A stretch of DNA of 16,682 nt from a virus. Its lineage: Duplodnaviria; Heunggongvirae; Uroviricota; Caudoviricetes. Made by a program: the position numbers and the translations under genes. This document shows, piece after piece, positions 1 to 12,224 of the stretch. The notes under the pieces are model-generated. The model had not been told where the DNA came from and did not search any database. It worked only from the letters and a program-made list of their open reading frames with translations. Position 1 is the first letter of the stretch, and every line of letters starts with the position of its first letter. The stretch spans positions 1-16,682 of IMG/VR virus record IMGVR_UViG_2695420653_000007. The stretch is one strand, 5' to 3'.

Positions 1-1248
1 ATGGCACTGAATATTCCATTCAGAAATGCGTACTATCGTTTTGCATCCAGTTACTCATTTCTCTTTTTTATTTCCTGGTCGCTGTGGTGGTCGTTATACG
101 CTATTTGGCTGAAAGGACATCTAGGGTTGACAGGGACGGAATTAGGTACACTTTATTCGGTCAACCAGTTTACCAGCATTCTATTTATGATGTTCTACGG
201 CATCGTTCAGGATAAACTCGGTCTGAAGAAACCGCTCATCTGGTGTATGAGTTTCATCCTGGTCTTGACCGGACCGTTTATGATTTACGTTTATGAACCG
301 TTACTGCAAAGCAATTTTTCTGTAGGTCTAATTCTGGGGGCGCTCTTTTTTGGCCTGGGGTATCTGGCGGGATGCGGTTTGCTTGACAGCTTCACCGAAA
401 AAATGGCGCGAAATTTTCATTTCGAATATGGAACAGCGCGCGCCTGGGGATCTTTTGGCTATGCTATTGGCGCGTTCTTTGCCGGCATATTTTTTAGTAT
501 CAGTCCCCATATCAACTTCTGGTTGGTCTCGCTATTTGGCGCTGTATTTATGATGATCAACATGTGTTTTAAAGATAAGGATCACCAGTGCGTAGCGGCG
601 GATGCGGGAGGGGTAAAAAAAGAGGATTTTATCGCAGTTTTCAAGGATCGAAACTTCTGGGTTTTCGTCATATTTATTGTGGGGACGTGGTCTTTCTATA
701 ACATTTTTGATCAACAACTTTTTCCTGTCTTTTATGCAGGTTTATTCGAATCACACGATGTAGGAACGCGCCTGTATGGTTATCTCAACTCATTCCAGGT
801 GGTACTCGAAGCGCTATGCATGGCGATTATTCCTTTCTTTGTGAATCGGGTAGGGCCAAAAAATGCATTACTTATCGGTGTTGTGATTATGGCGTTGCGT
901 ATCCTTTCCTGCGCGCTGTTCGTTAACCCCTGGATTATTTCATTAGTGAAGCTGTTACATGCTATTGAGGTTCCACTTTGTGTCATATCCGTCTTCAAAT
1001 ACAGCGTGGCAAATTTTGATAAGCGCCTGTCGTCGACGATCTTTCTGATTGGTTTTCAAATTGCCAGTTCGCTTGGGATTGTGCTGCTTTCAACGCCGAC
1101 TGGGATACTCTTTGACCACGCAGGCTACCAGACAGTTTTCTTCGCAATTTCGGGTATTGTCTGCCTGATGTTGCTATTTGGCATTTTCTTCCTGAGTAAA
1201 AAACGCGAGCAAATAGTTATGGAAACGCCTGTACCTTCAGCAATATAG
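1..1248 (+). CDS. MFS transporter, LacY-like oligosaccharide:H+ symporter family (415 aa); probable chromosomal flank of the prophage
   Basis: Full-length ORF in track; strongly hydrophobic multi-helix protein; from memory it aligns along its length with E. coli LacY (DKLGLKKPLIW vs LacY DKLGLRKYLLW; YVYEPLLQSN vs FIFGPLLQYN). Window begins exactly at its ATG, so upstream signals are not visible. Confidence 0.8.
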   Translation: MALNIPFRNAYYRFASSYSFLFFISWSLWWSLYAIWLKGHLGLTGTELGTLYSVNQFTSILFMMFYGIVQDKLGLKKPLIWCMSFILVLTGPFMIYVYEPLLQSNFSVGLILGALFFGLGYLAGCGLLDSFTEKMARNFHFEYGTARAWGSFGYAIGAFFAGIFFSISPHINFWLVSLFGAVFMMINMCFKDKDHQCVAADAGGVKKEDFIAVFKDRNFWVFVIFIVGTWSFYNIFDQQLFPVFYAGLFESHDVGTRLYGYLNSFQVVLEALCMAIIPFFVNRVGPKNALLIGVVIMALRILSCALFVNPWIISLVKLLHAIEVPLCVISVFKYSVANFDKRLSSTIFLIGFQIASSLGIVLLSTPTGILFDHAGYQTVFFAISGIVCLMLLFGIFFLSKKREQIVMETPVPSAI

Positions 1249-1386
1249 ACGTAAACTTTTCCGGTTGTTGTCGATATCTCCCTATCCCTCAACCGGAAAA
1301 TAATAATACTAAAGTGCTTAGCCCTGCTAATAATCACCTAATCCAAACGCCTCATTCATGTTCTGGTACAGTCGCTCAAATGTACT

Positions 1387-1563
1387 TCAGATGCGCGGTT
1401 CGCTGATTTCCAAGACATTGTCGTCATTCAGCGACCTGTCCCGTGTATCACGGTCCTGCGAATTCATCAAGGAATGCATTGCGGAGTGAAGTATCGAGTC
1501 ACGCCATATTTCGCTATCAGGATTCTGTGTGATGGTTACATCGCCCGGCCCAGGGCTGTTTAG
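1387..1563 (-). pseudogene. Possible degraded C-terminal remnant of a tyrosine integrase (no start codon, about 58 codons)
   Basis: Minus-strand frame reads ...DSILHSAMHSLMNSQDRDTRDRSLNDDNVLEISEPRI*, which loosely resembles my recollection of the lambda Int C-terminus (HLLGHKSDTMASQYRDDRGREWDKIEIK), with the catalytic Tyr position replaced by Asp. It sits immediately downstream of xis on the same strand, where int is expected. Weak similarity; could be chance. Confidence 0.25.
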
Positions 1564-1776
1564 TCATCAGCGCTTTCTGACAGTGCTGAGATTTCAACCT
1601 GTTGCAGTAAAAATGAGTAGATATAAGGCAAGTGTGCTGCCAAACCTATCTTTTACGGGGTGAAGGTAGATTTCGTTTGAAGGGTATCTGGTGTCCCCTG
1701 CAGACATCTACTTGAAGCGGCAGGGGATTGATTGGAATGGTGTTTTTTAGATGTGAAAAAAATTTTACCCGCTATT

Positions 1777-1977
1777 TTACCCATTGGCGCGGCTTAAGAG
1801 CTTATTTTTGAATTCACAATGGTCACGATATAACCATCTTGCTCGCCCGTGGATAACTTTGGCTTTAGGCAGGTCCCCGGACTTAATCCGGTCATAGATG
1901 AAGGTTTTACCGAAGCCAGTATCGGCCATGATGAATTTCAAATCAACCAGTGAATCAGGCTGTAGTTCGTGTTGCAT
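1777..1977 (-). CDS. xis: Excisionase-like small DNA-binding protein (AlpA/Xis HTH family), 66 aa
   Basis: Track ORF; short basic protein with pattern LVDLKFIMADTGFGKTFIYDRIKSGDLPKAKVIHGRARWLYRDHCEF typical of AlpA/Xis-type HTH excisionases; GGAG about 10 nt upstream of ATG; last gene of the leftward operon, the usual xis position. Confidence 0.7.
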   Translation of the reverse strand: MQHELQPDSLVDLKFIMADTGFGKTFIYDRIKSGDLPKAKVIHGRARWLYRDHCEFKNKLLSRANG

Positions 1978-2022
1978 GAGTGCTATCTCCGAATAGGGAA
2001 TCGAACCTGCAAATCAGGCAAT

Positions 2023-2043
2023 AAAAAAACCGCATTGATGCGG
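2023..2043 (-). terminator. Intrinsic terminator on minus strand (5-bp GC stem CCGCA/TGCGG, 4-nt loop, T7 run)
   Basis: Minus strand reads CCGCA-TCAA-TGCGG-TTTTTTT; lies between the 114-aa gene and xis. Confidence 0.55.
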
Positions 2044-2102
2044 CGATGGTAGGTCTGGATATCTTGAGAAATGAACTGGCCTCATCGAGTGTGAGGCTGT
2101 GG

Positions 2103-2447
2103 TTAGTCCTTGCGTAGCTCGCTAATTCTTCTGTAAGTCTCTGGTGCTTTGTTTCCGTGTATCTTCATTTCAGACTTCAACAGAGCAACGAGTGAATCCC
2201 ATTCGTTGAGGATTCCTTTGAATGCCGGAACGCGCTTTGCAACCTTGTCGAATGAATCTCTGATTTCTGGAATCTGCTCAACAAGTGCAACGCATCGCCG
2301 GAAATCGGCTGCGTCATGTGGAGCGCCGAAGTGATGACCATAGATATTCTTTTTCAGTCCACATGCGATTGAGGCAAGAGTTGCGCTACTGATGCCGACA
2401 TCGCCAGTCGATTGCCATTTCAAAACCTTCATAGCCAAATCTGACAT
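2103..2447 (-). CDS. Hypothetical prophage protein (114 aa)
   Basis: Track ORF; GGAG 8 nt upstream of ATG; flanked by hairpin terminators on both sides. No family recognised. Confidence 0.6.
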   Translation of the reverse strand: MSDLAMKVLKWQSTGDVGISSATLASIACGLKKNIYGHHFGAPHDAADFRRCVALVEQIPEIRDSFDKVAKRVPAFKGILNEWDSLVALLKSEMKIHGNKAPETYRRISELRKD

Positions 2448-2460
2448 TTCTTGTCTCCAT

Positions 2461-2485
2461 AAAACAAAACTCGCCGTAGCGAGTT
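2461..2485 (-). terminator. Intrinsic terminator A on minus strand (stem AACTCGC/GCGAGTT, loop of 4, then TTTTGTTTT), abutting the RBS of the 114-aa gene
   Basis: Perfect 7-bp inverted repeat followed on the minus strand by a T-rich run; directly seen. Confidence 0.5.
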
Positions 2486-2488
2486 CAG

Positions 2489-2516
2489 ATAAAAGAAAAC
2501 CCGCACTCGGCGGGTT
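2489..2516 (-). terminator. Intrinsic terminator B on minus strand (stem AACCCGC/GCGGGTT, loop of 5, then TTTTCTTTTAT), in tandem with terminator A
   Basis: Perfect 7-bp GC-rich inverted repeat followed on the minus strand by a T-rich tract. Confidence 0.5.
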
Positions 2517-2795
2517 CGCATTCGTTCAAATTGCGTTTACTTCTTGGCGTTCTGTTCATCCATATCGATATACCATGGGTTGCTTCCCTTGGGCATGTTT
2601 AACGACTGCTCGCGATAGTATCTGATGCGCTCCATGAAATACTCGCGTGAGTGCTCAGGTTGCTCTCATGATACCTGCTCAGTGATAACAGGTATGTTAA
2701 GGCGCTCTCTGTACTCCATGCCTGATGCTGCAAGGTCAACGTTTACCTTGTTCTGTTTTTCTTTCGATTTCTCGGCGATGTTATGCCTGACATTG

Positions 2796-3038
2796 TCAAC
2801 CCGCCTCCTTCTGAACATAACGGTTATAAATCAGTCCCTGAGGGCCATAAGGAAGCGGGATGTGCAACTCCTCTGGTTCAGAAACTATCCATTCTCCGGC
2901 CATCTCCGCTGGAGAGGTAATGATAAGTTGTTTGCTAATAAAAGGACCACTCCTCTCAACAACAAGCTTACCATCTTCATTAATAAAAGCTTGGATGTCA
3001 GGTGTGCTTCCACACTTGGTGATGCAGCGTTTGAACAT
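2796..3038 (-). CDS. Hypothetical small protein (about 80 aa, MFKRCITKCGSTPD...), moron-like unit with its own promoter
   Basis: Track ORF 2796..3080, but the upstream ATGs overlap the putative promoter; ATG at 3038 is preceded by a G-rich SD (GGGGGGA). AT-rich region with extended -10 immediately upstream. Confidence 0.5.
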   Translation of the reverse strand: MFKRCITKCGSTPDIQAFINEDGKLVVERSGPFISKQLIITSPAEMAGEWIVSEPEELHIPLPYGPQGLIYNRYVQKEAG

Positions 3039-3068
3039 TTTGTGTCCCCCCATTTTATGTACTGGGTA

Positions 3069-3077
3069 ATTATAACA
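3069..3077 (-). promoter_or_regulatory. Putative extended -10 promoter element (TGtTATAAT on minus strand) in AT-rich intergenic region 3039..3164
   Basis: Minus strand reads TGTTATAAT (plus attataaca at 3069..3077), a perfect TATAAT with upstream TG; -35 not convincing. Confidence 0.35.
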
Positions 3078-3164
3078 CATTGAAATATAGTAATATTTGA
3101 CGTAGATTTCTTTTGATCTATAAGCGATTTTTTAATGCTTTTAAGTTATAAATACTTGTTTTCA

Positions 3165-4091
3165 TCACCCATCTTGCTGCGGTGCTACTATTGAAAAGTG
3201 CTCACACCCTTTATCCCAAATAGTTTTGATAGTTGTCCAACTGACTGGAACCTTGATTTCGATTCTCCCGCTACAGTCACAAGTTTCGCAATCATCATCA
3301 CCAAAGCATTCCGGGCAGCTTATAAACGTAGTTTCTGAAAATTCACCGGATAGCACACCCTTAGCGCCGTTCTCGGCTGTTAGTCTCTTCGGCACCATGA
3401 CCCAACCATCCGGAATTACCGGAGAGTTGCCCGATAGTGCATTCTGCTCCAGTGATGCTTTTACAAACCACGCTGCCTGAACTATAACGCCATGAATCCA
3501 GCGCAAATCAGCATCGCGATCTTTCTTTTTCATCTTTTCGCCACTTAAGGCCTTGCTTATGTGGCTGCGTACCAGGTCTTCATGTAATTCCTTCGCCTCC
3601 TCAATGGTGAAACCACCAGGCAGAAGAGCCGGAGTTACCGGAGAGCTGGTTGACGCTTCCGGGATTTCCCGAAAATTATTGGTTGACGAATTCTTGCTTT
3701 CCCGAAAGTTTCCGGACTGAAGCATGGCGGTGCGGCAGGCGTTCCATATTTCGGCAGCAATATCGCGCTCGCTATCGGTTAATTTGTACGTGGAAACATA
3801 GCCAGAGAGCATTTCTACGTTTTCCGGAGTTGCTTCTTCCGGCACTACCGGCGCTGGCGGGGCGGCAAATAGATATCCGCCAAAGTCAGGAAGCTCTCCA
3901 ATGGCCTGTACGAACTTTTGTTTGCCTACGTCAACTCCTAATGGGTAATGAGCTATAATCTTTGCCACCGGCTCTGCTTCCAGCGATACCAGTGCAATCC
4001 GTGCCACTTCCATTTGTTCGCCACGAGTAAGTCCGTTATCAAGCGGATTTTTAATGAATAATTTGATACGTTCTTTGGTCATAGCGCTCAT
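3165..4091 (-). CDS. Hypothetical prophage early-region protein (308 aa) with C-terminal Cys cluster (CPECFGDDDCETCDCSG)
   Basis: Track ORF; start ATG lies 1 nt after the stop of the upstream Ea22-like gene. No confident family assignment. Confidence 0.65.
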   Translation of the reverse strand: MSAMTKERIKLFIKNPLDNGLTRGEQMEVARIALVSLEAEPVAKIIAHYPLGVDVGKQKFVQAIGELPDFGGYLFAAPPAPVVPEEATPENVEMLSGYVSTYKLTDSERDIAAEIWNACRTAMLQSGNFRESKNSSTNNFREIPEASTSSPVTPALLPGGFTIEEAKELHEDLVRSHISKALSGEKMKKKDRDADLRWIHGVIVQAAWFVKASLEQNALSGNSPVIPDGWVMVPKRLTAENGAKGVLSGEFSETTFISCPECFGDDDCETCDCSGRIEIKVPVSWTTIKTIWDKGCEHFSIVAPQQDG

Positions 4092-4092
4092 A

Positions 4093-4911
4093 TCACTCTC
4101 CTTTGATGCGAATGCCAGCGTCAGACATCATATGCAGATACTCAACTGCATCCTGAACCCATTGACCGCCAATCCCGTAATAGCGATGCGTAATGATGTC
4201 GATAGTTACTAACGGATCTTGTTCGATTAACTTCCGCAGAAACTCTTCCAGGTCACCAGTGCAGTGCTTGATGACAGGAGTTTTCCCAGGATGGCGAACA
4301 ACAAGAAACTGATTTCCGACTTCACGGACTTCGTTGCTTTCCAGTTCTGCAATGCGCTTCTCTGCGGCTTCCAGCTTCTCGCGCATATCGTCAACGTACT
4401 CGACCAGAGAACCGCCAGCAGGAATTTCGCACTCCTCGACCAGTTGGAAGTAGATATCAGCTGCGGCCCGTGTGTTGCTATGCCTAGCGTCGCCCATCTC
4501 ACCTTCACGAAGAGCATCGCGTTCGGCGGTAAGATTGGCTATTTTGCTGTCTTTGCCTTCCAGCTCAACGCGCAGCTTCCCTACCGTTAGCGCAATATCC
4601 TCGTTCTCCTGGTCGCGTGATTTGATGTATTGCTGGTTTCTTTCCCGTTCATCCAGTAATGCCAGCACGATAGCTGGATTGGCTGCGGCGATGAATTCAG
4701 CATTGGCCTGCTGTTCCATTTGGAAATCTTCATCGAAACCGCTTTCAGGATGCGCTCCTTCAATTCTGCAAATGGGAAGATATCCAACAACGTCACGATG
4801 AATTAGCGCATCATCACAATCAAATCGGCTCTCTCCATATTCGAGCGACCACACACCACACGTTGCTTTCTCTGCCTTTTCACGCAGTGCCTGATAGTCA
4901 ATTTTGCTCAC
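4093..4911 (-). CDS. ead/Ea22-like family protein (272 aa)
   Basis: N-terminus MSKIDYQALREKAEKAT... and central ...ANAEFIAAANPAIVLALLDE... match my recollection of lambda Ea22-like prophage proteins; followed by a coiled-coil-like region. Confidence 0.6.
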   Translation of the reverse strand: MSKIDYQALREKAEKATCGVWSLEYGESRFDCDDALIHRDVVGYLPICRIEGAHPESGFDEDFQMEQQANAEFIAAANPAIVLALLDERERNQQYIKSRDQENEDIALTVGKLRVELEGKDSKIANLTAERDALREGEMGDARHSNTRAAADIYFQLVEECEIPAGGSLVEYVDDMREKLEAAEKRIAELESNEVREVGNQFLVVRHPGKTPVIKHCTGDLEEFLRKLIEQDPLVTIDIITHRYYGIGGQWVQDAVEYLHMMSDAGIRIKGE

Positions 4912-5393
4912 TGGTTGCCCTCCTTCATAAAAATAATCCAGTGGGTCTTGTCACCCTTTCCTGTTCGTTGACCGATAACAGGCTTTCTGTCTGTCAGTGC
5001 CAATATTTGGCGAACAGGTATTTGCGTTTCATTCCATTTAAAAATCAGAACACCATATGGCCACAACACACGAAAGGCTTCTTTAAATCCCTGCCGCAAA
5101 TCATCACGCCAGGTATCTTTATTCAGCCGTCCATATTTCTTTCCCATCCAGGCGTTATCACCAACACGCTCAAGATGCGGAGGGTCGAATACAACAACCG
5201 GAAACGATGCGTCTGCAAATGGTAATGCACGAAAATCTGCTATCAGGTCAGGGCTAATTATCAGCCGTCGGCCATCACACAATATGTGATCTTCCTTTCT
5301 GATATCGCTAAATATCGCCCGGTCGTCCTTCTTATCGAACCAGAACATGCGACTGCCACAGCACATGTCGAGGATTGCTGCATGTCCAGTCAC
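4908..5393 (-). CDS. Small putative SAM-dependent methyltransferase (161 aa), GTG start overlapping upstream stop
   Basis: Motif I-like ILDMCCGSRMF near the N-terminus and motif IV-like VVFDPPH about 60 residues later, an arrangement seen in amino-methyltransferases (N6A/N4C DNA or RsmD-like). GTGA overlap with the upstream gene. Confidence 0.65.
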   Translation of the reverse strand: MTGHAAILDMCCGSRMFWFDKKDDRAIFSDIRKEDHILCDGRRLIISPDLIADFRALPFADASFPVVVFDPPHLERVGDNAWMGKKYGRLNKDTWRDDLRQGFKEAFRVLWPYGVLIFKWNETQIPVRQILALTDRKPVIGQRTGKGDKTHWIIFMKEGNQ

Positions 5394-8383: not shown

Positions 8384-9352
8384 TTAGTAGGTTATTTTTG
8401 TTGCGAATACTTCGCCTTTTACGATGGCTGTTATGATATTTTTAGCAACATCTTCTGATGCGCCAACCTTGATAAGGTCAGCAAGTATTTTGTTATTTAC
8501 TTCTTTCCGGTGAGCTTTATCCTTTGCTCTACGCTCTTCTTCGTCCTTGATTCTTTTTTCTTCTGCTATTCTGGCTTGCTCTTTTGCTTCAGCATCGCGA
8601 CGGATTTGTTCAGCCTCCTCCTGTGCTTTTCGGCGTTCTGCTTCAATTGCCGCCTGCTTTTCTCTTTCAGCTCGTTCTGCTGCCTCTTTTGCTTCGCGCT
8701 GTGCTCGTTGCTCGGCTTCAATGCGTTCACGCTCTGCACGTTCCGCTGCGGCCTTAGCTTCTGCTTCTCGCCTTGCTGCTGCTTCAATTTCGGCTTTTGC
8801 CTTTGCTTCGGCTTCAGCTCTGGCTTTCGCTTCAGCTTCTCTTTTTAAGCGTTCTTCATGCTCTCGCTTTTCCTGCTCCGCTTTGAGTCTTGCCTCTTCT
8901 CTTTGGCGGTCAAATTCGCGATCCATCAAAATAGCTATTTCATGGTCAGACTCAATTTGCTTTGCGAGAGCTTCAGCTGCTGCCTTAGCTTCTTCTTCGG
9001 CTTTAATCCGCGCCTGTTCTTCCTCATAATCAGTAAGAGGCTGGCGCGCCTTGGCTTTCAGCTCATCAAGGCGATCACGCACTGTCTTGCGGTTAGCATC
9101 AATTAGCTTTGGAATTTCCTTCAGTTCAGCAACAAGGTCTTTGCCAAGACCATCGAGATATGTTTTCGTCTGCGAAACTTTATACGCCAGAGAAGCGATC
9201 TCCTTTCTGCCCTTTGCCGTTGTGATATCAGGCACAAAGGACATAACTTCACGTTCAACCTTTTGAAGGATTTCTTCAATCTGGTCGGCAGACTGAAATA
9301 CAGTCATTGCATTTGCTTTTTCAATAACAACTAAATCTGTTACTTCACTCAT
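8384..9352 (-). CDS. Hypothetical phage protein (322 aa) with long Ala/Glu/Lys/Arg-rich charged coiled-coil (TolA-like low complexity)
   Basis: Track ORF trimmed to ATG at 9352 (MSEVTDLVVIEK...) preceded by GGAGG; about 150 residues of EAKAKAEAEA-type repeats encoded by GCTTC/GCTGC-rich DNA. Confidence 0.7.
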   Translation of the reverse strand: MSEVTDLVVIEKANAMTVFQSADQIEEILQKVEREVMSFVPDITTAKGRKEIASLAYKVSQTKTYLDGLGKDLVAELKEIPKLIDANRKTVRDRLDELKAKARQPLTDYEEEQARIKAEEEAKAAAEALAKQIESDHEIAILMDREFDRQREEARLKAEQEKREHEERLKREAEAKARAEAEAKAKAEIEAAARREAEAKAAAERAERERIEAEQRAQREAKEAAERAEREKQAAIEAERRKAQEEAEQIRRDAEAKEQARIAEEKRIKDEEERRAKDKAHRKEVNNKILADLIKVGASEDVAKNIITAIVKGEVFATKITY

Positions 9353-9363
9353 ATATCCTCCAT

Positions 9364-9393
9364 AAAAAAAATTGCCCTCACATTGGAGGGCAA
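9364..9393 (-). terminator. Strong intrinsic terminator on minus strand (8-bp stem TTGCCCTC/GAGGGCAA, 6-nt loop, T8 run), tL-like
   Basis: Perfect 8-bp inverted repeat followed on the minus strand by eight T; the T-run abuts the RBS of the 322-aa gene. Confidence 0.65.
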
Positions 9394-9486
9394 AGAAGAT
9401 TTCCAATAATCAGAACAAGTCGGCTCCTGTTTAGTTACGAGCGACATTGCTCCGTGTATTCACTCGTTGGAATGAATACACAGTGC

Positions 9487-9675
9487 TTATTCGTCATGCA
9501 TTTCAGGTAATTCTTCGTATTCGACGCCCCATACGAGTTTACACCAAGTGACTCGCTCATATCTTTTACAAAAATCAGACCACATAACTTGTGTTCCATC
9601 ATGGTTTGTTATTACTTCTGTAATATCACCAACACTAACAAAACTGGTATTAGAAGCAGTTATTTTTACTTTCAT
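9487..9675 (-). CDS. Hypothetical small protein (62 aa), AT-rich accessory gene
   Basis: Track ORF; ATG overlaps the stop of the upstream 98-aa gene (TAATG); followed by a 9-bp-stem hairpin at 9454..9481. Confidence 0.5.
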   Translation of the reverse strand: MKVKITASNTSFVSVGDITEVITNHDGTQVMWSDFCKRYERVTWCKLVWGVEYEELPEMHDE

Positions 9676-9971
9676 TACTTATCCCCAAGAGCTTTTCTTA
9701 TTGCTGCGAGACCTTTATTAACAGCTCCATACCATTCTGGATATGTTGTCGTTGTTCTATTTTTGGTTTGCTTAAGTAATAACTGAAGTGCTTCGAGAAG
9801 GTCAGGTGCTGCCGCTATTAGATTGGCATCTTCAATGCATTGAACTTCCTCACAGATTGCAATATACGAACGCCAGCCTGCGCCATTTTCAAGTGAGTCT
9901 GCCTGGATGATTTTAATCTCATCCCCATCCATCATTATTTCCCACTTACCTTCAGTACCTTTAAATCCCAT
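9675..9971 (-). CDS. Hypothetical acidic protein (98 aa), AT-rich accessory gene
   Basis: Track ORF; AGAGG 7 nt upstream of ATG; coupled to the 62-aa ORF. Confidence 0.55.
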   Translation of the reverse strand: MGFKGTEGKWEIMMDGDEIKIIQADSLENGAGWRSYIAICEEVQCIEDANLIAAAPDLLEALQLLLKQTKNRTTTTYPEWYGAVNKGLAAIRKALGDK

Positions 9972-10023
9972 GTTAGCCTCTGTTGTTTATGCCAAAAATA
10001 AAGGACGGTTATGCGGCCTGAAA

Positions 10024-10446
10024 TTACTTAACCAATGATGCTGCATATTCAATTAGGAATAACTTAGGTGCAAGCCAAATCTTCAACCATTCGAAATTGA
10101 AGGCAATAATTAAAACACCCATAATTGAGCCAAATATAGGAACAAATACAGTGCATATATCGTAATAAACCGAAGATATAAAATGTCCATCATTTGGACG
10201 TCCATCGAAAGACGTCCATCTCTCGCCATTATTTCTTGCCGTTCTTGCAAAACTAGGAAGTTTAATTGCTGCAATTAAAAGCAACAATCCAGCCACTTGG
10301 AAAAGTGCGCTATGGACAAAACTCCATATTAGCAACTGATGAACAACATCAGGAATCTGTGCCTGGCTAAATGAAACAGCCGCATCTATTCCATTGCTGG
10401 CTTTTTGCAGTAGTTCTACGAGAATCTTGTTGGCTTGTTCTTCCAT
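10024..10446 (-). CDS. Hypothetical membrane protein (140 aa, about 2 TM segments) immediately downstream of N; SieB-position superinfection-exclusion candidate
   Basis: Track ORF; two long hydrophobic stretches; its SD (GAGGTG) overlaps the N stop codon; position matches sieB in lambda/P22 but no sequence identity established. Confidence 0.6.
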   Translation of the reverse strand: MEEQANKILVELLQKASNGIDAAVSFSQAQIPDVVHQLLIWSFVHSALFQVAGLLLLIAAIKLPSFARTARNNGERWTSFDGRPNDGHFISSVYYDICTVFVPIFGSIMGVLIIAFNFEWLKIWLAPKLFLIEYAASLVK

Positions 10447-10454
10447 ATATCACC

Positions 10455-10754
10455 TCAAATAAGTGGTTTGCTGCCTAATTTCATTTTCTGGCGACCAACA
10501 CAAGTCACCCCCATTTCACTGCGTGGCTTGCGGTAGTAAATATGATTCTGTTTACGCTCGACTTCTTCTGCCTTCTTGCAGCGAAGGCTTCCGAGTGATG
10601 CTGCTTTATCTGCTCTGACGCAACCAGAGAGCTTTAGCGCAATTTTTCGCGCCAGTCGCTGTTCTTGCATTGCCTGCTCACGTTGAGCCTGTCTGCGTGC
10701 TCTGCGGCGATTTCTGGCGTTATCGTCAGCCAGATATGTAATGACTACTGCCAT
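10455..10754 (-). CDS. N: Antitermination protein N (99 aa)
   Basis: Arginine-rich motif near N-terminus (NARNRRRARRQAQREQ); C-terminus YYRKPRSEMGVTCVGRQKMKLGSKPLI closely resembles lambda N C-terminus (WYSKPGERGITCSGRQKIKGKSIPLI, from memory); GGAGG 6 nt upstream; nutL in leader. Confidence 0.85.
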   Translation of the reverse strand: MAVVITYLADDNARNRRRARRQAQREQAMQEQRLARKIALKLSGCVRADKAASLGSLRCKKAEEVERKQNHIYYRKPRSEMGVTCVGRQKMKLGSKPLI

Positions 10755-10861
10755 GTTGACCTCCGATGATTGACTTTGGCGGTGACGCGCCGGGTGCTTA
10801 TCTTCCGGTTGCCGTCGTGCAGCTGCACTTCACGTCACCCCAAAGCCAACTACTCTTTGGT

Positions 10862-10902
10862 TCCCGCATTTCGGCGGGACAATCCCATCAATGTTAAAGA
10901 GC
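10862..10902 (-). promoter_or_regulatory. nutL: boxA (GCTCTTTAACAT, 10891..10902) and boxB hairpin (UCCCGC-CGAAAU-GCGGGA, 10862..10879) on the leftward transcript
   Basis: Same boxA core and identical 18-nt boxB as the site after cro (nutR); correct order boxA then boxB in the N leader. Confidence 0.6.
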
Positions 10903-10948
10903 CTGCCAATCTGTTCCGTTTGGCTTCCAGCGTCCTGCTGATGGCTAA

Positions 10949-11035
10949 AGAATACTGTAGGTATTTTATTGTGTAAATACCCAAGGTATTTATTTTTGGT
11001 GAAATAATGATAAGCAAATGAATACAAAGGATATT
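10949..11035 (-). promoter_or_regulatory. pL/OL region: operators AATACTGTAGGTATT (10951..10965), AATACCCAAGGTATT (10976..10990), AATACAAAGGATATT (11021..11035); putative pL -10 TATTCT and -35 TTTACA on minus strand
   Basis: Three 15-bp sites with inverted half-sites AATAC/GTATT, the same consensus as at OR; -10 overlaps OL1 and -35 overlaps OL2 with a 17-bp spacer, as at lambda pL. Confidence 0.55.
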
Positions 11036-11490: not shown

Positions 11491-11507
11491 AAGCGCCCCT
11501 TGCGTGA

Positions 11508-12224
11508 TCAAACCAGCCTTAGTTTTGTCTCAATTGCAACGCCTATAATCTTGCAGTTTCCATTGATTGGCACGAGAGGCCATGCAGGGTTAAGTCCCTT
11601 GAGGTATTTATTTCCGCCGTCGATTATCAGCTTCTTGAATGTTGCTTCGTTAGAGTCAGAAAGTTTTGCTATGACCAAGCTGCCGTTGATCGCCTCCCTT
11701 CCGGTATCGAAAAGAACGAATGTTCCCTCTGGAATGCTTAACCCAACCGGTGCCGTCATTGAATCACCTTCCACTTTAAGCCAAAACGCATTACCTTGAA
11801 TATGCGCGTCAGACTCAAGCCAAACATCTATGTCTTTAATGGTGTATGGTTCGCATGCTTCACACCACGAGCCAGCCTGGATACTGCTTAACACCGGATA
11901 CCTCTTTCCTGCTCTGTATTCCCCTGCATACCTTACGTTGGCATCGCTCTTAAGGCTTTCTGCCTGTTCTGCAACCTTGGCAGCAATTGACTGGCTAAAA
12001 TCAGCAATTGAGACTTGCAACAGTCGTGCAAAACCAGATGCAACCTCAACGTTTAGCGCGTTTCTGCCATTAAGATAATGCCCTACCGCTCCTTGGGTGA
12101 TACCAAGTTCATCAGCAATTGAGTATTGGGTTATTCCCAACTCTTTCTTTTTTGACTCATACAAAGCCTTAAGCCGCTTAGCGTCTTCGAGCTGTTCTGT
12201 CGTCAGTGATTTCTTATTTTCCAT
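11508..12224 (-). CDS. cI: CI repressor (238 aa; N-terminal HTH, C-terminal LexA-like S24 autopeptidase domain)
   Basis: N-terminus LTTEQLEDAKRLKALYESKKKELGITQ parallels lambda cI ([27 protein letters not shown]); C-terminal FWLKVEGDSMTAP and FKKL motifs (catalytic Ser/Lys); no SD before ATG, consistent with a leaderless pRM transcript. Confidence 0.9.
   Translation of the reverse strand: MENKKSLTTEQLEDAKRLKALYESKKKELGITQYSIADELGITQGAVGHYLNGRNALNVEVASGFARLLQVSIADFSQSIAAKVAEQAESLKSDANVRYAGEYRAGKRYPVLSSIQAGSWCEACEPYTIKDIDVWLESDAHIQGNAFWLKVEGDSMTAPVGLSIPEGTFVLFDTGREAINGSLVIAKLSDSNEATFKKLIIDGGNKYLKGLNPAWPLVPINGNCKIIGVAIETKLRLV

Follow-up and report, generated by a model that had tools for sequence, protein, structure and literature searches.

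Immediately downstream of gene N, the stretch of DNA analysed here (16,682 nucleotides in full, hereafter the window) carries an AT-rich block of three small genes, encoding proteins of 140, 98 and 62 aa, which ends in a hairpin and an intrinsic terminator. The first-pass annotation described these elements as one three-gene block, possibly an exclusion module or a toxin-antitoxin-like pair. This raises the question whether the three genes, the hairpin and the terminator belong together, or whether they are separate elements that share a location. The window is a P22-like (Lederbergvirus-type) E. coli prophage, and the block lies within its early-left (pL) operon. The results presented below favor, with a probability of about 60%, the reading that the block is a variable accessory slot of a lambdoid pL operon, in which two independent cassettes are inserted at short conserved junctions and are followed by the tL2a/PreS locus.

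Gene content and expression signals of the block

The features of the region are listed in Table 1. All sequence features that had been described for the block were found again, and at the same positions. The GC contents of the 140-, 98- and 62-aa ORFs are 0.381, 0.411 and 0.349, respectively, versus 0.493 for N, 0.458 for the coiled-coil gene downstream and 0.451 for the whole window, in agreement with the previous description of the three ORFs as more AT-rich than N and the gene beyond.

Table 1. Positions of genes and signals in and around the block
Feature	Position	Strand	Remarks
Candidate early-left promoter pL	10949..10977	-	TTTACA, 17-nt spacer, TATTCT; consensus scan
Candidate nutL boxB-like hairpin	10862..10879	-	TCCCGC-CGAAAT-GCGGGA, read off the sequence
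N	10455..10754	-	99 aa
140-aa ORF (cassette A)	10024..10446	-	predicted two-TM protein, PHROG 3054
Boundary intergenic sequence	9972..10023	-	conserved; degenerate terminator-like hairpin
98-aa ORF (cassette B, gene 1)	9675..9971	-	predicted XkdD/Y8K6, PHROG 1273
62-aa ORF (cassette B, gene 2)	9487..9675	-	PHROG 10407
Hairpin	9454..9481	-	directly 5' of the PreS-like sRNA
Putative PreS/LPR1 sRNA homologue	9364..9451	-	~88 nt; terminator tL2a is its 3' end
Intrinsic terminator, putative tL2a	9364..9393	-	8-bp stem, T8; terminator scan
322-aa coiled-coil gene, outside the block	8384..9352	-	Sf6 gp33 family

The three small ORFs are real genes, because each of them gives a full-length PHROG match (E = 2e-52, 3e-31 and 2e-45 for the 140-, 98- and 62-aa ORFs, respectively), their diverged homologues show many synonymous codon differences, and no ORF matching any phage family is present in the alternative frames or on the plus strand of the block; coding in those frames was rejected on this ground. 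It is extremely improbable that any of them is a non-functional remnant or arose by chance in an AT-rich spacer: although all three are without assigned function, and the 62-aa ORF is unannotated in some RefSeq genomes, homologues at 42-73% identity with abundant synonymous substitutions occur in different genera and in virulent phages, and the Shine-Dalgarno sequences are well placed.

The N gene belongs to PHROG 271 (E=5e-36) and is syntenic with N of CUS-3, HF4s and Sf6; its match to Pfam N_peptide (E=5e-4) falls under the gathering score. Between cI and the terminator, a consensus scan of the minus strand detected a single promoter-like site. This site is flanked by operator-like palindromes (AAATACC..GGTATTT, read off the sequence), and its position suggests that it is pL; similarly, the boxB-like hairpin would be nutL, judging from its location between this promoter and N. 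No promoter-like site was detected on the coding strand of positions 9400-10900, and the terminator scan called no terminator in the block upstream of position 9393, both within the limits of consensus scans, which leave room for weak internal promoters in AT-rich DNA and for Rho-dependent termination. A moron would have its own promoter and terminator; the block has no internal promoter-like site, and its terminator is part of the conserved backbone (see below). As to translation, the sequence TGAGGTGATATATG contains a Shine-Dalgarno motif, GAGGTGA, that overlaps the N stop codon and is located 8 nt upstream of the start of the 140-aa ORF, and the 98- and 62-aa ORFs overlap in TAATG; both of these arrangements had been noticed before.

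Together these signals suggest the following scheme. Transcription starting at pL (~10977-10949) would pass nutL and N and, since no recognisable terminator is present between pL and tL2a, would continue through the 140-, 98- and 62-aa ORFs. At tL2a (9393-9364) the transcript would stop before N acts and would read through after N acts, and the 3' end formed there would yield a PreS-like sRNA. The 140-aa ORF would be translated from the Shine-Dalgarno sequence over the N stop codon, and the 62-aa ORF by coupling to the 98-aa ORF. Because pL is the only promoter-like site and no terminator precedes tL2a, the three proteins would be made together with N at the onset of lytic growth and not in a repressed lysogen. 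With low confidence, each of them is probably a stand-alone, non-essential accessory.

The hairpin and the terminator

The hairpin at 9481..9454 (GUGUAUUCAUUC-CAAC-GAGUGAAUACAC) contains nine perfect pairs, or 12 pairs with one G-U when extended, and the terminator stem-loop at 9393..9372 has eight pairs, five of them G-C, followed by T8 down to position 9364. Thus, the 9-bp stem and the strong terminator are present as originally described, and folding of the RNA of positions 9355-9500 gave a z of -5.4 compared with shuffled sequences. They do not belong to the block, however. The hairpin is 100% identical to that of lambda, and the adjoining region 9364..9451 is identical to lambda PreS/LPR1 at 84 of 88 positions (95%) without gaps, including the whole unpaired body; the three to four substitutions are confined to the loop and the stem base of the terminator and to its T-run. 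In 327 phage records, the ~135 nt that surround this region show 95-99% conservation. The homologous element of Sf6 is annotated as 'tL2A, homology to lambda', and in phage 434 a terminator is annotated at the same place. Moreover, the window element shares with tL2a/PreS a GC-rich hairpin and a poly-U 3' end, its presence in the pL operon and its position just upstream of the gene in the ea10 slot. By sequence, the hairpin and terminator are therefore identified as the conserved tL2a/PreS sRNA locus, which in lambda occupies the ral-ea10 spacer, and what was taken for the end of the block is better described as a pan-lambdoid element.

PreS/LPR1 is an Hfq-dependent sRNA of lambda whose 3' end is tL2a; it appears 10 min after induction, is absent in lysogens, and regulates dnaN, boosting host DnaN during lytic growth (bioRxiv 10.1101/2024.10.31.621285). 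A search of positions 9300-11000 against Rfam gave no match at gathering score and one chance-level match at E<=1. PreS evidently is without an entry in Rfam 15.

The three protein families and their association

The 140-aa protein matches PHROG 3054 over residues 1-140 (E=2.3e-52) and differs at one residue from gp34 of Shigella phage Sf6. It is accordingly predicted to be the orthologue of Sf6 gene 34, a two-TM inner-membrane protein. The earlier call of two TM segments agrees with the presence of hydrophobic segments at residues ~43-63 and ~96-116, and two such segments are found in 32/32 aligned family members, whose charge distribution is ambiguous as to topology by the positive-inside rule. 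The homologues form more than 480 clusters, and a Pfam domain is found in none of them. AF2 predicts an all-helical structure (pLDDT 76), for which Foldseek gave no match in the PDB at E<=0.001. Mean pairwise identity within the family is 81% at the N-terminus and 88% at the C-terminus, versus 17% in the centre. The N-terminal 46 codons contain 23 synonymous and 10 non-synonymous differences, and the C-terminal 21 codons contain 13 and 3, respectively; this excess of synonymous differences indicates that the termini are under purifying selection at the protein level. We tentatively suggest that the termini serve a common function and that the hypervariable TM hairpin and loop confer specificity. 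A holin function was rejected: the protein has no Pfam holin match, and it also seems implausible that a lysis protein would be expressed as early as N, which is an argument rather than a test.

In lambda, the place of the 140-aa ORF is that of sieB. Homology of the 140-aa protein to SieB was rejected, as no Pfam match to SieB (PF14163) was obtained at E<=1 and hhalign comparison of the 32-sequence family profile with lambda SieB gave a probability of 0.3%. A function akin to that of SieB, SieA or Rex, i.e. superinfection exclusion acting in the lysogen and expressed from the prophage, by the 140-aa protein alone or together with the pair, would fit this position and also the small size, the two TM segments and the hypervariable centre of the protein, as expected of an arms-race determinant; in addition, members of the gp34 family are located in the moron-rich region between the lysis and terminase genes of Serratia and Kluyvera prophages. 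The 140-aa ORF is located, however, on the pL strand only 8 nt past N and has no promoter-like site of its own in the consensus scan, whereas in lambda sieB and the pL transcript are on opposite strands, and PADLOC gave no match. Exclusion in the lysogen is thus quite improbable. With low confidence, we propose that a gp34-type protein would most likely act early to exclude superinfecting phages, or would modulate an envelope-based function of the host.

The 98-aa protein is acidic and soluble and matches PHROG 1273 (E=2.6e-31), and nearly all its close homologues carry the precomputed annotation PF27050 (Phage_P22_Y8K6). On the basis of these two lines, the annotation of the homologues and PHROG 1273, the 98-aa ORF is predicted to be a member of the XkdD/Y8K6 family (PF27050). 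It contains the invariant helical motif LIAAAPDLLEAL of this family and the C-terminal motif AI(S/R)KALG; the C-terminus AISKALGEE, whose coding region includes the Shine-Dalgarno sequence of the next gene, is nearly invariant among Y8K6 proteins. The AF2 model (pLDDT 73.5) consists of a small beta N-terminal part and a helical hairpin, for which Foldseek found no match in the PDB at E<=0.001 and only unnamed relatives in the viral BFVD library.

The 62-aa protein is likewise acidic and matches PHROG 10407 over residues 1-62 (E=1.5e-45). Its family is small, with only 21 clusters at 90% identity. A profile search of 1.84 billion representatives found 14, about 10 of which are genuine small relatives, none of them fused to a known domain; the long matches P0265 and P0269 were discarded as low-complexity repeats. 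The protein resembles the C-terminal part of a 119-aa protein of RB49-like (T4-like) phages, with a best identity of 59%, and 53% for RB49 itself. Compared with its Salmonella homologue, the 62-aa ORF differs synonymously at 15 codons and non-synonymously at 17. Homologues of the 98- and 62-aa families are present in virulent Vequintavirinae and Krischvirus phages, among them a full-length 98-aa homologue in the virulent Klebsiella phage KB57 (KB57_029). Both families are shared with virulent phages. We guess, with low confidence, that the products of the two genes most likely act by binding host factors and inhibiting them, in counter-defence or host takeover.

Neither Ral nor SieB is among the three proteins, and no known toxin, antitoxin or defence protein is either. 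Scans of all three against Pfam, NCBIfam and PADLOC gave no significant match, and searching the PDB with profiles of the three families was likewise without result. In particular, no match to Ral (PF11058) was obtained in Pfam, PHROGs or NCBIfam, as was anticipated in the first-pass annotation; the Ral genes of sister prophages are ORFs of their own. Foldseek with the 98- and 140-aa models, a check of the kind proposed earlier, returned no informative match either. Literature searches on Y8K6, xkdD and Sf6 gp34 returned nothing relevant, and peptide strings of the three ORFs were absent from the literature searched and from the supplements of one phage accessory-gene screen.

Do the three genes form a unit? 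The exact trio is absent from all 5,426 complete E. coli genomes and from all 50,697 phage records searched. Positions 9440-10023 were matched in 2,163 E. coli genomes, most of which match the flanks only (9972..10023 and ~9440-9486), and the 98+62 pair is present in only 60. In these 60 genomes the pair is preceded by a gene for a 156-aa soluble protein, by Nmad5, or, in about seven, by a variant allele of the gp34 family. The membrane gene and the pair therefore assort independently, contrary to the idea of a three-gene module, and co-occurrence in other prophages, which had been put forward as a check, shows the pair mostly behind unrelated genes.

The two cassettes also have distinct borders. 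The junction between N and the next gene, TTGAGGTGAKATATG, is conserved regardless of the N allele or the downstream cassette. The boundary between the cassettes (9972..10023) contains a degenerate terminator-like hairpin, GGCCG..CGTCC followed by TTTATTTTT, whose stem has one mismatch in the window (read off the sequence). In Sf6, CUS-3 and lambda this boundary sequence directly adjoins the hairpin region, so that the 98+62 cassette of the window represents a clean insertion, which separates gene 34 from the hairpin.

Y8K6 genes are always located in the slot between N and the terminator, and both their upstream and their coupled downstream neighbours vary. The downstream partner is a 62-aa ORF in the window and in Salmonella, a 52-aa ORF in phages mEp043 and APC_JM3.2, a 69/70-aa ORF (loci L027-L030), a DUF551 ORF (L035-L037) or an uncalled 41-aa ORF (L031), amounting to at least five unrelated small-ORF families; in every arrangement examined the small ORF overlaps the Y8K6 stop codon by 1-4 nt, or more as called. 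The Y8K6 allele of mEp043 is 96% identical to that of the window and is nevertheless coupled to the unrelated 52-aa ORF. Conversely, homologues of the 62-aa protein elsewhere lie beside unrelated genes or are fused, as in RB49-like phages, and in virulent phages the loci of KB57_029 (Y8K6) and of RB49p076 and P0138 (62-aa homologues) have other neighbours.

These data bear directly on the proposal that the 98- and 62-aa proteins form a toxin-antitoxin-like or abortive-infection pair. The genes are small, AT-rich and translationally coupled, and the coupling is kept between E. coli and Salmonella at ~70% identity. Coupling to at least five unrelated small-ORF families argues against such a pair, though, as do the single occurrence of each family in virulent phages and the ~21 clusters of the 62-aa family versus at least 147 of Y8K6, which implies that most Y8K6 genes have no 62-aa partner. 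Nothing resembling a toxin or antitoxin family or fold was found in Pfam, NCBIfam, PADLOC, the PDB or Foldseek searches, nor was any defence model matched; and the pair has no promoter of its own in the consensus scan, while pL is repressed in lysogens. We therefore consider a toxin-antitoxin or abortive-infection function very unlikely.

A genuine two-component cassette, in which Y8K6 is a conserved 'carrier' or adaptor and the coupled small ORF, of which the 62-aa ORF is one type, a swappable effector, would account for the overlap seen in every arrangement examined and for the near invariance of AISKALGEE with its downstream Shine-Dalgarno sequence. Indeed, the retained 98/62 coupling and the near-universal presence of a small ORF coupled to Y8K6 could reflect a real two-gene logic and not a mere junction. 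On the other hand, there is no co-variation, as the same Y8K6 allele (96%) accompanies either a 62-aa or a 52-aa ORF, and its C-terminal half recurs beside a 69/70-aa ORF; the loci in virulent phages have other neighbours, and a conserved recombination and translation junction explains the pattern equally well. The two-component cassette is accordingly doubtful. We are similarly hesitant about two bolder views, which even jointly are unlikely to hold: the gp34 family as an undescribed class of membrane determinants, with a common activity in the invariant termini and allele-specific recognition by the hypervariable TM hairpin and loop, which could act in early superinfection exclusion or neutralise a membrane-based abortive-infection system, or Y8K6 as a 'docking' gene at whose 3' end small effectors could be exchanged between temperate and virulent phages.

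If the preferred reading, an accessory slot with two independent cassettes, is true, the block represents typical lambdoid mosaicism and not a new system, in a place that is already well known as variable in lambda-like prophages. It would, in addition, correct the annotation 'terminator + hairpin' to a copy of lambda PreS, a conserved sRNA, document short conserved junctions for cassette swapping, including exchange with virulent phages, and draw attention to three early-gene families, widespread yet uncharacterised, that could be entered in screens for counter-defence or exclusion, even though envelope or counter-defence roles for these proteins are a guess.

Comparison with known loci

The order cI, N, slot, terminator and coiled-coil gene is the same in Sf6, CUS-3, HF4s, lambda and 434; in the relatives cIII, kil and erf come next, and an ERF-family ORF is present in the window. 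This gene-order comparison supports the earlier placement of the block in the lambdoid N-cIII interval, the home of lambda sieB and ral. The view of this interval as a hotspot for exclusion and anti-restriction genes also agrees with the relatives, in which validated genes of this kind, for Ral, SieB and a Nun-like protein, lie within it, and one for a true Gad1 (E=6.5e-68) just beyond the terminator. In the window, the gene beyond the terminator occupies the slot of lambda ea10 and encodes an E/A/K-rich, 'TolA-like' protein of 322 aa (PHROG 1376, E=2e-109), for which identity with Gad1 was rejected. Ral, Gad1 and Abc2 of sister prophages resemble the products of the block in being small early proteins from the same operon and hotspot, yet none of the three ORFs matches these families. 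An abc2 homologue is located further along in the window.

T4 Imm, HK97 gp15 and P22 SieA are early or moron-encoded small membrane exclusion proteins. Like the 140-aa protein, they are small phage inner-membrane proteins that are dispensable and variable among relatives; the analogy is functional, with no similarity in sequence or fold detected.

Compared with lambda (N-sieB-ral-tL2a(PreS)-ea10), the block takes the same position, directly past N and ahead of cIII/kil, the ~135-nt spacer with hairpin and terminator is 95-99% identical, and the interval likewise would contain accessory genes that are non-essential and under the control of pL. The genes themselves are entirely different, however, the block having no homologue of Ral or SieB, and, unlike in lambda, N and the gene after it are too close together to accommodate a tL1-type terminator. 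The gene upstream of PreS is ral in lambda and the 62-aa ORF in the window, and Hfq binding, lytic expression and dnaN regulation are known for lambda PreS. Sf6 and CUS-3 are without the Y8K6 + 62-aa cassette, unlike the window, and have ral between N and gene 34 (Sf6 also gene 36); in Sf6, with the order 37(N)-36-35(ral)-34-tL2A-33, as in CUS-3, the slot is closed by the same terminator and gp33-type coiled-coil gene as in the window.

Early-left gene order and the elements that bound the block

The window is a P22-like (Lederbergvirus-type) E. coli prophage. Its early-left region runs in the order cI, a small TM ORF, a pL-like promoter with operators, N, three small ORFs, a hairpin and terminator, and a gene for a 322-aa coiled-coil protein (Table). 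Homologues of Erf, SSB and Abc2 lie further along, and in the relatives the stretch from the coiled-coil gene to erf has annotated cIII and kil genes. A common early-left backbone is annotated in Sf6, CUS-3, HF4s, lambda and 434.

Table. Features of the early-left region
Feature	Coordinates	Strand	Remarks
cI	11508..12224		early-left region, followed by the small TM ORF
multi-TM ORF, 122-129 aa	11122-11511	minus	directly after cI; probable true start near 11493
pL-like promoter and operators	~10977-10949		upstream of N
N	10455..10754	minus	99 aa; ORF list
140-aa ORF	10024..10446	minus	ORF list
98-aa ORF	9675..9971	minus	ORF list
62-aa ORF	9487..9675	minus	ORF list
hairpin	9481..9454	minus	12-bp; directly upstream of the PreS-like sRNA; identical to lambda's
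terminator	stem-loop 9393..9372, T8 down to 9364	minus	terminator scan
322-aa E/A/K-rich coiled-coil protein	8384-9352	minus	Sf6 gp33 family, PHROG 1376

The sequence features that the first-pass annotation had described for the three-gene block were recovered. The ORFs are AT-rich (GC 0.381, 0.411 and 0.349 for the 140-, 98- and 62-aa ORFs, against 0.493 for N and 0.458 for the next gene), a Shine-Dalgarno sequence, GAGGTGA within ...ATTTGAGGTGATATATG..., lies over the N stop, the 140-aa protein contains two hydrophobic stretches consistent with two TM helices, the 98- and 62-aa ORFs overlap at TAATG, and both hairpin and terminator are present.

Judged by sequence comparison, the hairpin and terminator are backbone elements. 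The spacer 9353-9486 (~135 nt) recurs at 95-99% identity in 327 phage records, including lambda (between ral and ea10), 434, HK022, Sf6 and Stx phages, and the RNA fold of the hairpin-terminator spacer is far more stable than that of shuffled sequences (z = -5.4). The terminator is annotated in Sf6 as tL2A by homology to lambda. In lambda this locus encodes the Hfq-dependent sRNA LPR1/PreS, of ~88 nt processed to ~68 nt, whose 3' end is tL2a; PreS is made from 10 min post induction and not in lysogens, activates dnaN translation and is conserved in >2,500 genomes (bioRxiv 10.1101/2024.10.31.621285). Region 9451..9364 is identical to lambda PreS at 84 of 88 positions, the differences all falling in the terminator loop, stem base or T-run.

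A LacY/CscB-type host permease gene (1-1248) adjoins the prophage end. Between it and the Ead/Ea22-region genes (window 1-3165) no integrase-sized ORF with a family match was found, and ORFs 2625-3083 (plus) and 3165-4091 (minus) gave no Pfam match; this prophage end may be rearranged. A 161-aa ORF (4908-5393, minus) matches phage DNA methyltransferase families (PHROG 954, E=9e-87; no Pfam match) and could be an anti-restriction methylase within the same operon.

The 140-aa ORF and the Sf6 gene 34 family

The 140-aa ORF is a single residue apart from Sf6 gene 34, and its match to PHROG 3054 spans the full length (E=2e-52). This gp34 family comprises >480 clusters across Enterobacteriaceae; every one is named hypothetical, and Pfam domains are absent throughout. 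When 32 diverse members are aligned, the first 46 residues have a mean pairwise identity of 81% and the last 24 one of 88%, against 17% for the central TM1-loop-TM2 part, in which the loop varies from 8 to 44 residues. Since codon differences from a Serratia homologue are largely synonymous (23 synonymous and 10 non-synonymous at the N-terminus, 13 and 3 at the C-terminus), the termini are conserved at the protein level and not by DNA homogenisation. The AF2 model is all-helical; the TM helices are predicted confidently, the termini less so. SieB was rejected as an identity for this ORF (no Pfam match; hhalign probability 0.3%).

In Serratia odorifera (L020 3001-3381) and Kluyvera (L021 3001-3426), members lie not after N but in the stretch that separates the lysis cassette from the terminase genes. 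This indicates that the family is a mobile cassette of both early and late transcription units. The gp34 arrangement, a hypervariable centre flanked by invariant termini, is worth experiments; it is not yet evidence for a new system.

The coupled 98-aa and 62-aa ORFs

The 98-aa ORF matches PHROG 1273 (E=3e-31), and its homologues belong to Pfam PF27050 'Phage_P22_Y8K6' (RefSeq 'XkdD/Y8K6 family phage-associated protein'). Members share a variable N-terminal half, an invariant LIAAAPDLLEAL helix and, after a further variable stretch, a conserved AISKALGEE end; the AF2 model places a small beta unit ahead of a helical hairpin. The 62-aa ORF matches PHROG 10407 (E=1.5e-45), a tiny family with 21 clusters at 90% identity and, out of 1.84 billion representatives, ~10 genuine ones. 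A distant 58-aa homologue of the 62-aa protein adjoins an unrelated gene. Both proteins are acidic (pI ~4.8). RB49-like T4-type phages have a hypothetical protein of 119-144 aa (PHROG 16117) that carries the 62-aa domain as its C-terminal half, and it is this half to which the window protein is 53-59% identical (RB49p076 of phage RB49, L016 2312-2671, and related Krischvirus); this likeness indicates that temperate and virulent coliphages have exchanged genes.

The proposal that the three genes form a unit was not borne out: at ≥80% coverage the trio occurs in 0 of 5,426 complete E. coli genomes and 0 of 50,697 phage records. The 98+62 pair is present in 60 E. coli genomes, where the gene ahead of it encodes an unrelated soluble protein of 156 aa or an Nmad5 protein; in Salmonella a pentapeptide-repeat protein precedes it, and in ~7 genomes the pair accompanies a different gp34-family allele (149 or 121 aa). 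The 98+62 cassette sits between ...AACAACAGA and GCACTGTGTATTC... as a clean insertion relative to Sf6, CUS-3 and lambda. The junction TTGAGGTGAKATATG between N and the next gene is kept whatever flanks either side. Such junctions are the short 'boundary sequences' (bsq4, bsq5) annotated in Sf6 and CUS-3.

In CUS-3 and lambda a terminator-like hairpin (GGCCG-CATAGT-CGGCC plus TTTATTTTT) lies after gene 34 or ral. The window copy (9996-10022, minus) carries a stem mismatch (GGCCG...CGTCC) and is absent from the terminator-scan calls, so this hairpin may be weaker here.

The reading of the pair as toxin-antitoxin-like is also disfavoured, because the coupled partner of Y8K6 differs between phages and both families also occur apart in virulent phages; Klebsiella phage KB57, for example, has a full-length Y8K6 homologue alone. 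The partner is an unrelated 52-aa ORF in mEp043 and APC_JM3.2, whose Y8K6 is 96% identical to the window's, a 69/70-aa ORF in comparison loci L027-L030, a DUF551 protein in L035-L037 and an uncalled 41-aa ORF in L031. Y8K6 alleles do not co-vary with partner family, and neither the 98-aa nor the 62-aa protein is hit by any toxin, antitoxin or defence model. ORFs coupled to the Y8K6 stop are often unannotated, as is the 41-aa ORF in Salmonella (L031 2295-2420, TGATG overlap); the 62-aa ORF itself is unannotated in several RefSeq E. coli genomes (L025, L026 ~2501-2689). The recurrent layout of Y8K6 with a variable coupled small ORF likewise merits experiments, and is not yet evidence for a new system.

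Expression, likely roles and comparison with known systems

The block consists of two cassettes that occupy a conserved slot; the 140-aa ORF is linked translationally to N, and the 62-aa ORF to the 98-aa ORF. The only promoter-like site upstream is pL, and the scan called no terminator before tL2a. The three proteins would be made with N from the first pL transcript, which would end at tL2a, or read through once N acts; the 3' end at tL2a would yield a PreS-like sRNA. In a repressed lysogen all three would be silent. Based on location in an interval that elsewhere includes Ral, SieB, Nun-like and Gad1 genes, on sharing with virulent phages and on the hypervariable membrane hairpin, our guess is that gp34 acts on the envelope, in early exclusion or something akin to it, and that the two small acidic proteins inhibit host factors.

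The multi-TM ORF after cI matches PHROG 6534 (E=4e-79), overlaps the cI stop as listed and occupies the rexB / 434-hex / Sf6-gene-38 position. Given this position it is, unlike the block, probably co-transcribed with the repressor in lysogens, and is therefore the better candidate for prophage-expressed exclusion or defence.

The 322-aa coiled-coil family routinely goes by the annotation 'cell envelope biogenesis protein TolA'. This name looks like a compositional artefact, since the TolA model scores 10 bits against a cut-off of 59; in phage HF4s the protein is annotated as an antitoxin similar to phi80 Agt. In a sister prophage (E. coli CP146665.1, L028 2633-3607) the Gabija anti-defence gene Gad1 directly follows tL2a/PreS (PF25705, E=6.5e-68); the 322-aa protein is unrelated to Gad1.

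The position after tL2a/PreS is occupied by Gad1 in CP146665.1, by the TolA-like gene in the window and by ea10 in lambda. All three block proteins belong to existing uncharacterised families, and the architecture is a classic lambdoid mosaic with an already known terminator and sRNA; what is particular to the window is the combination of cassettes.
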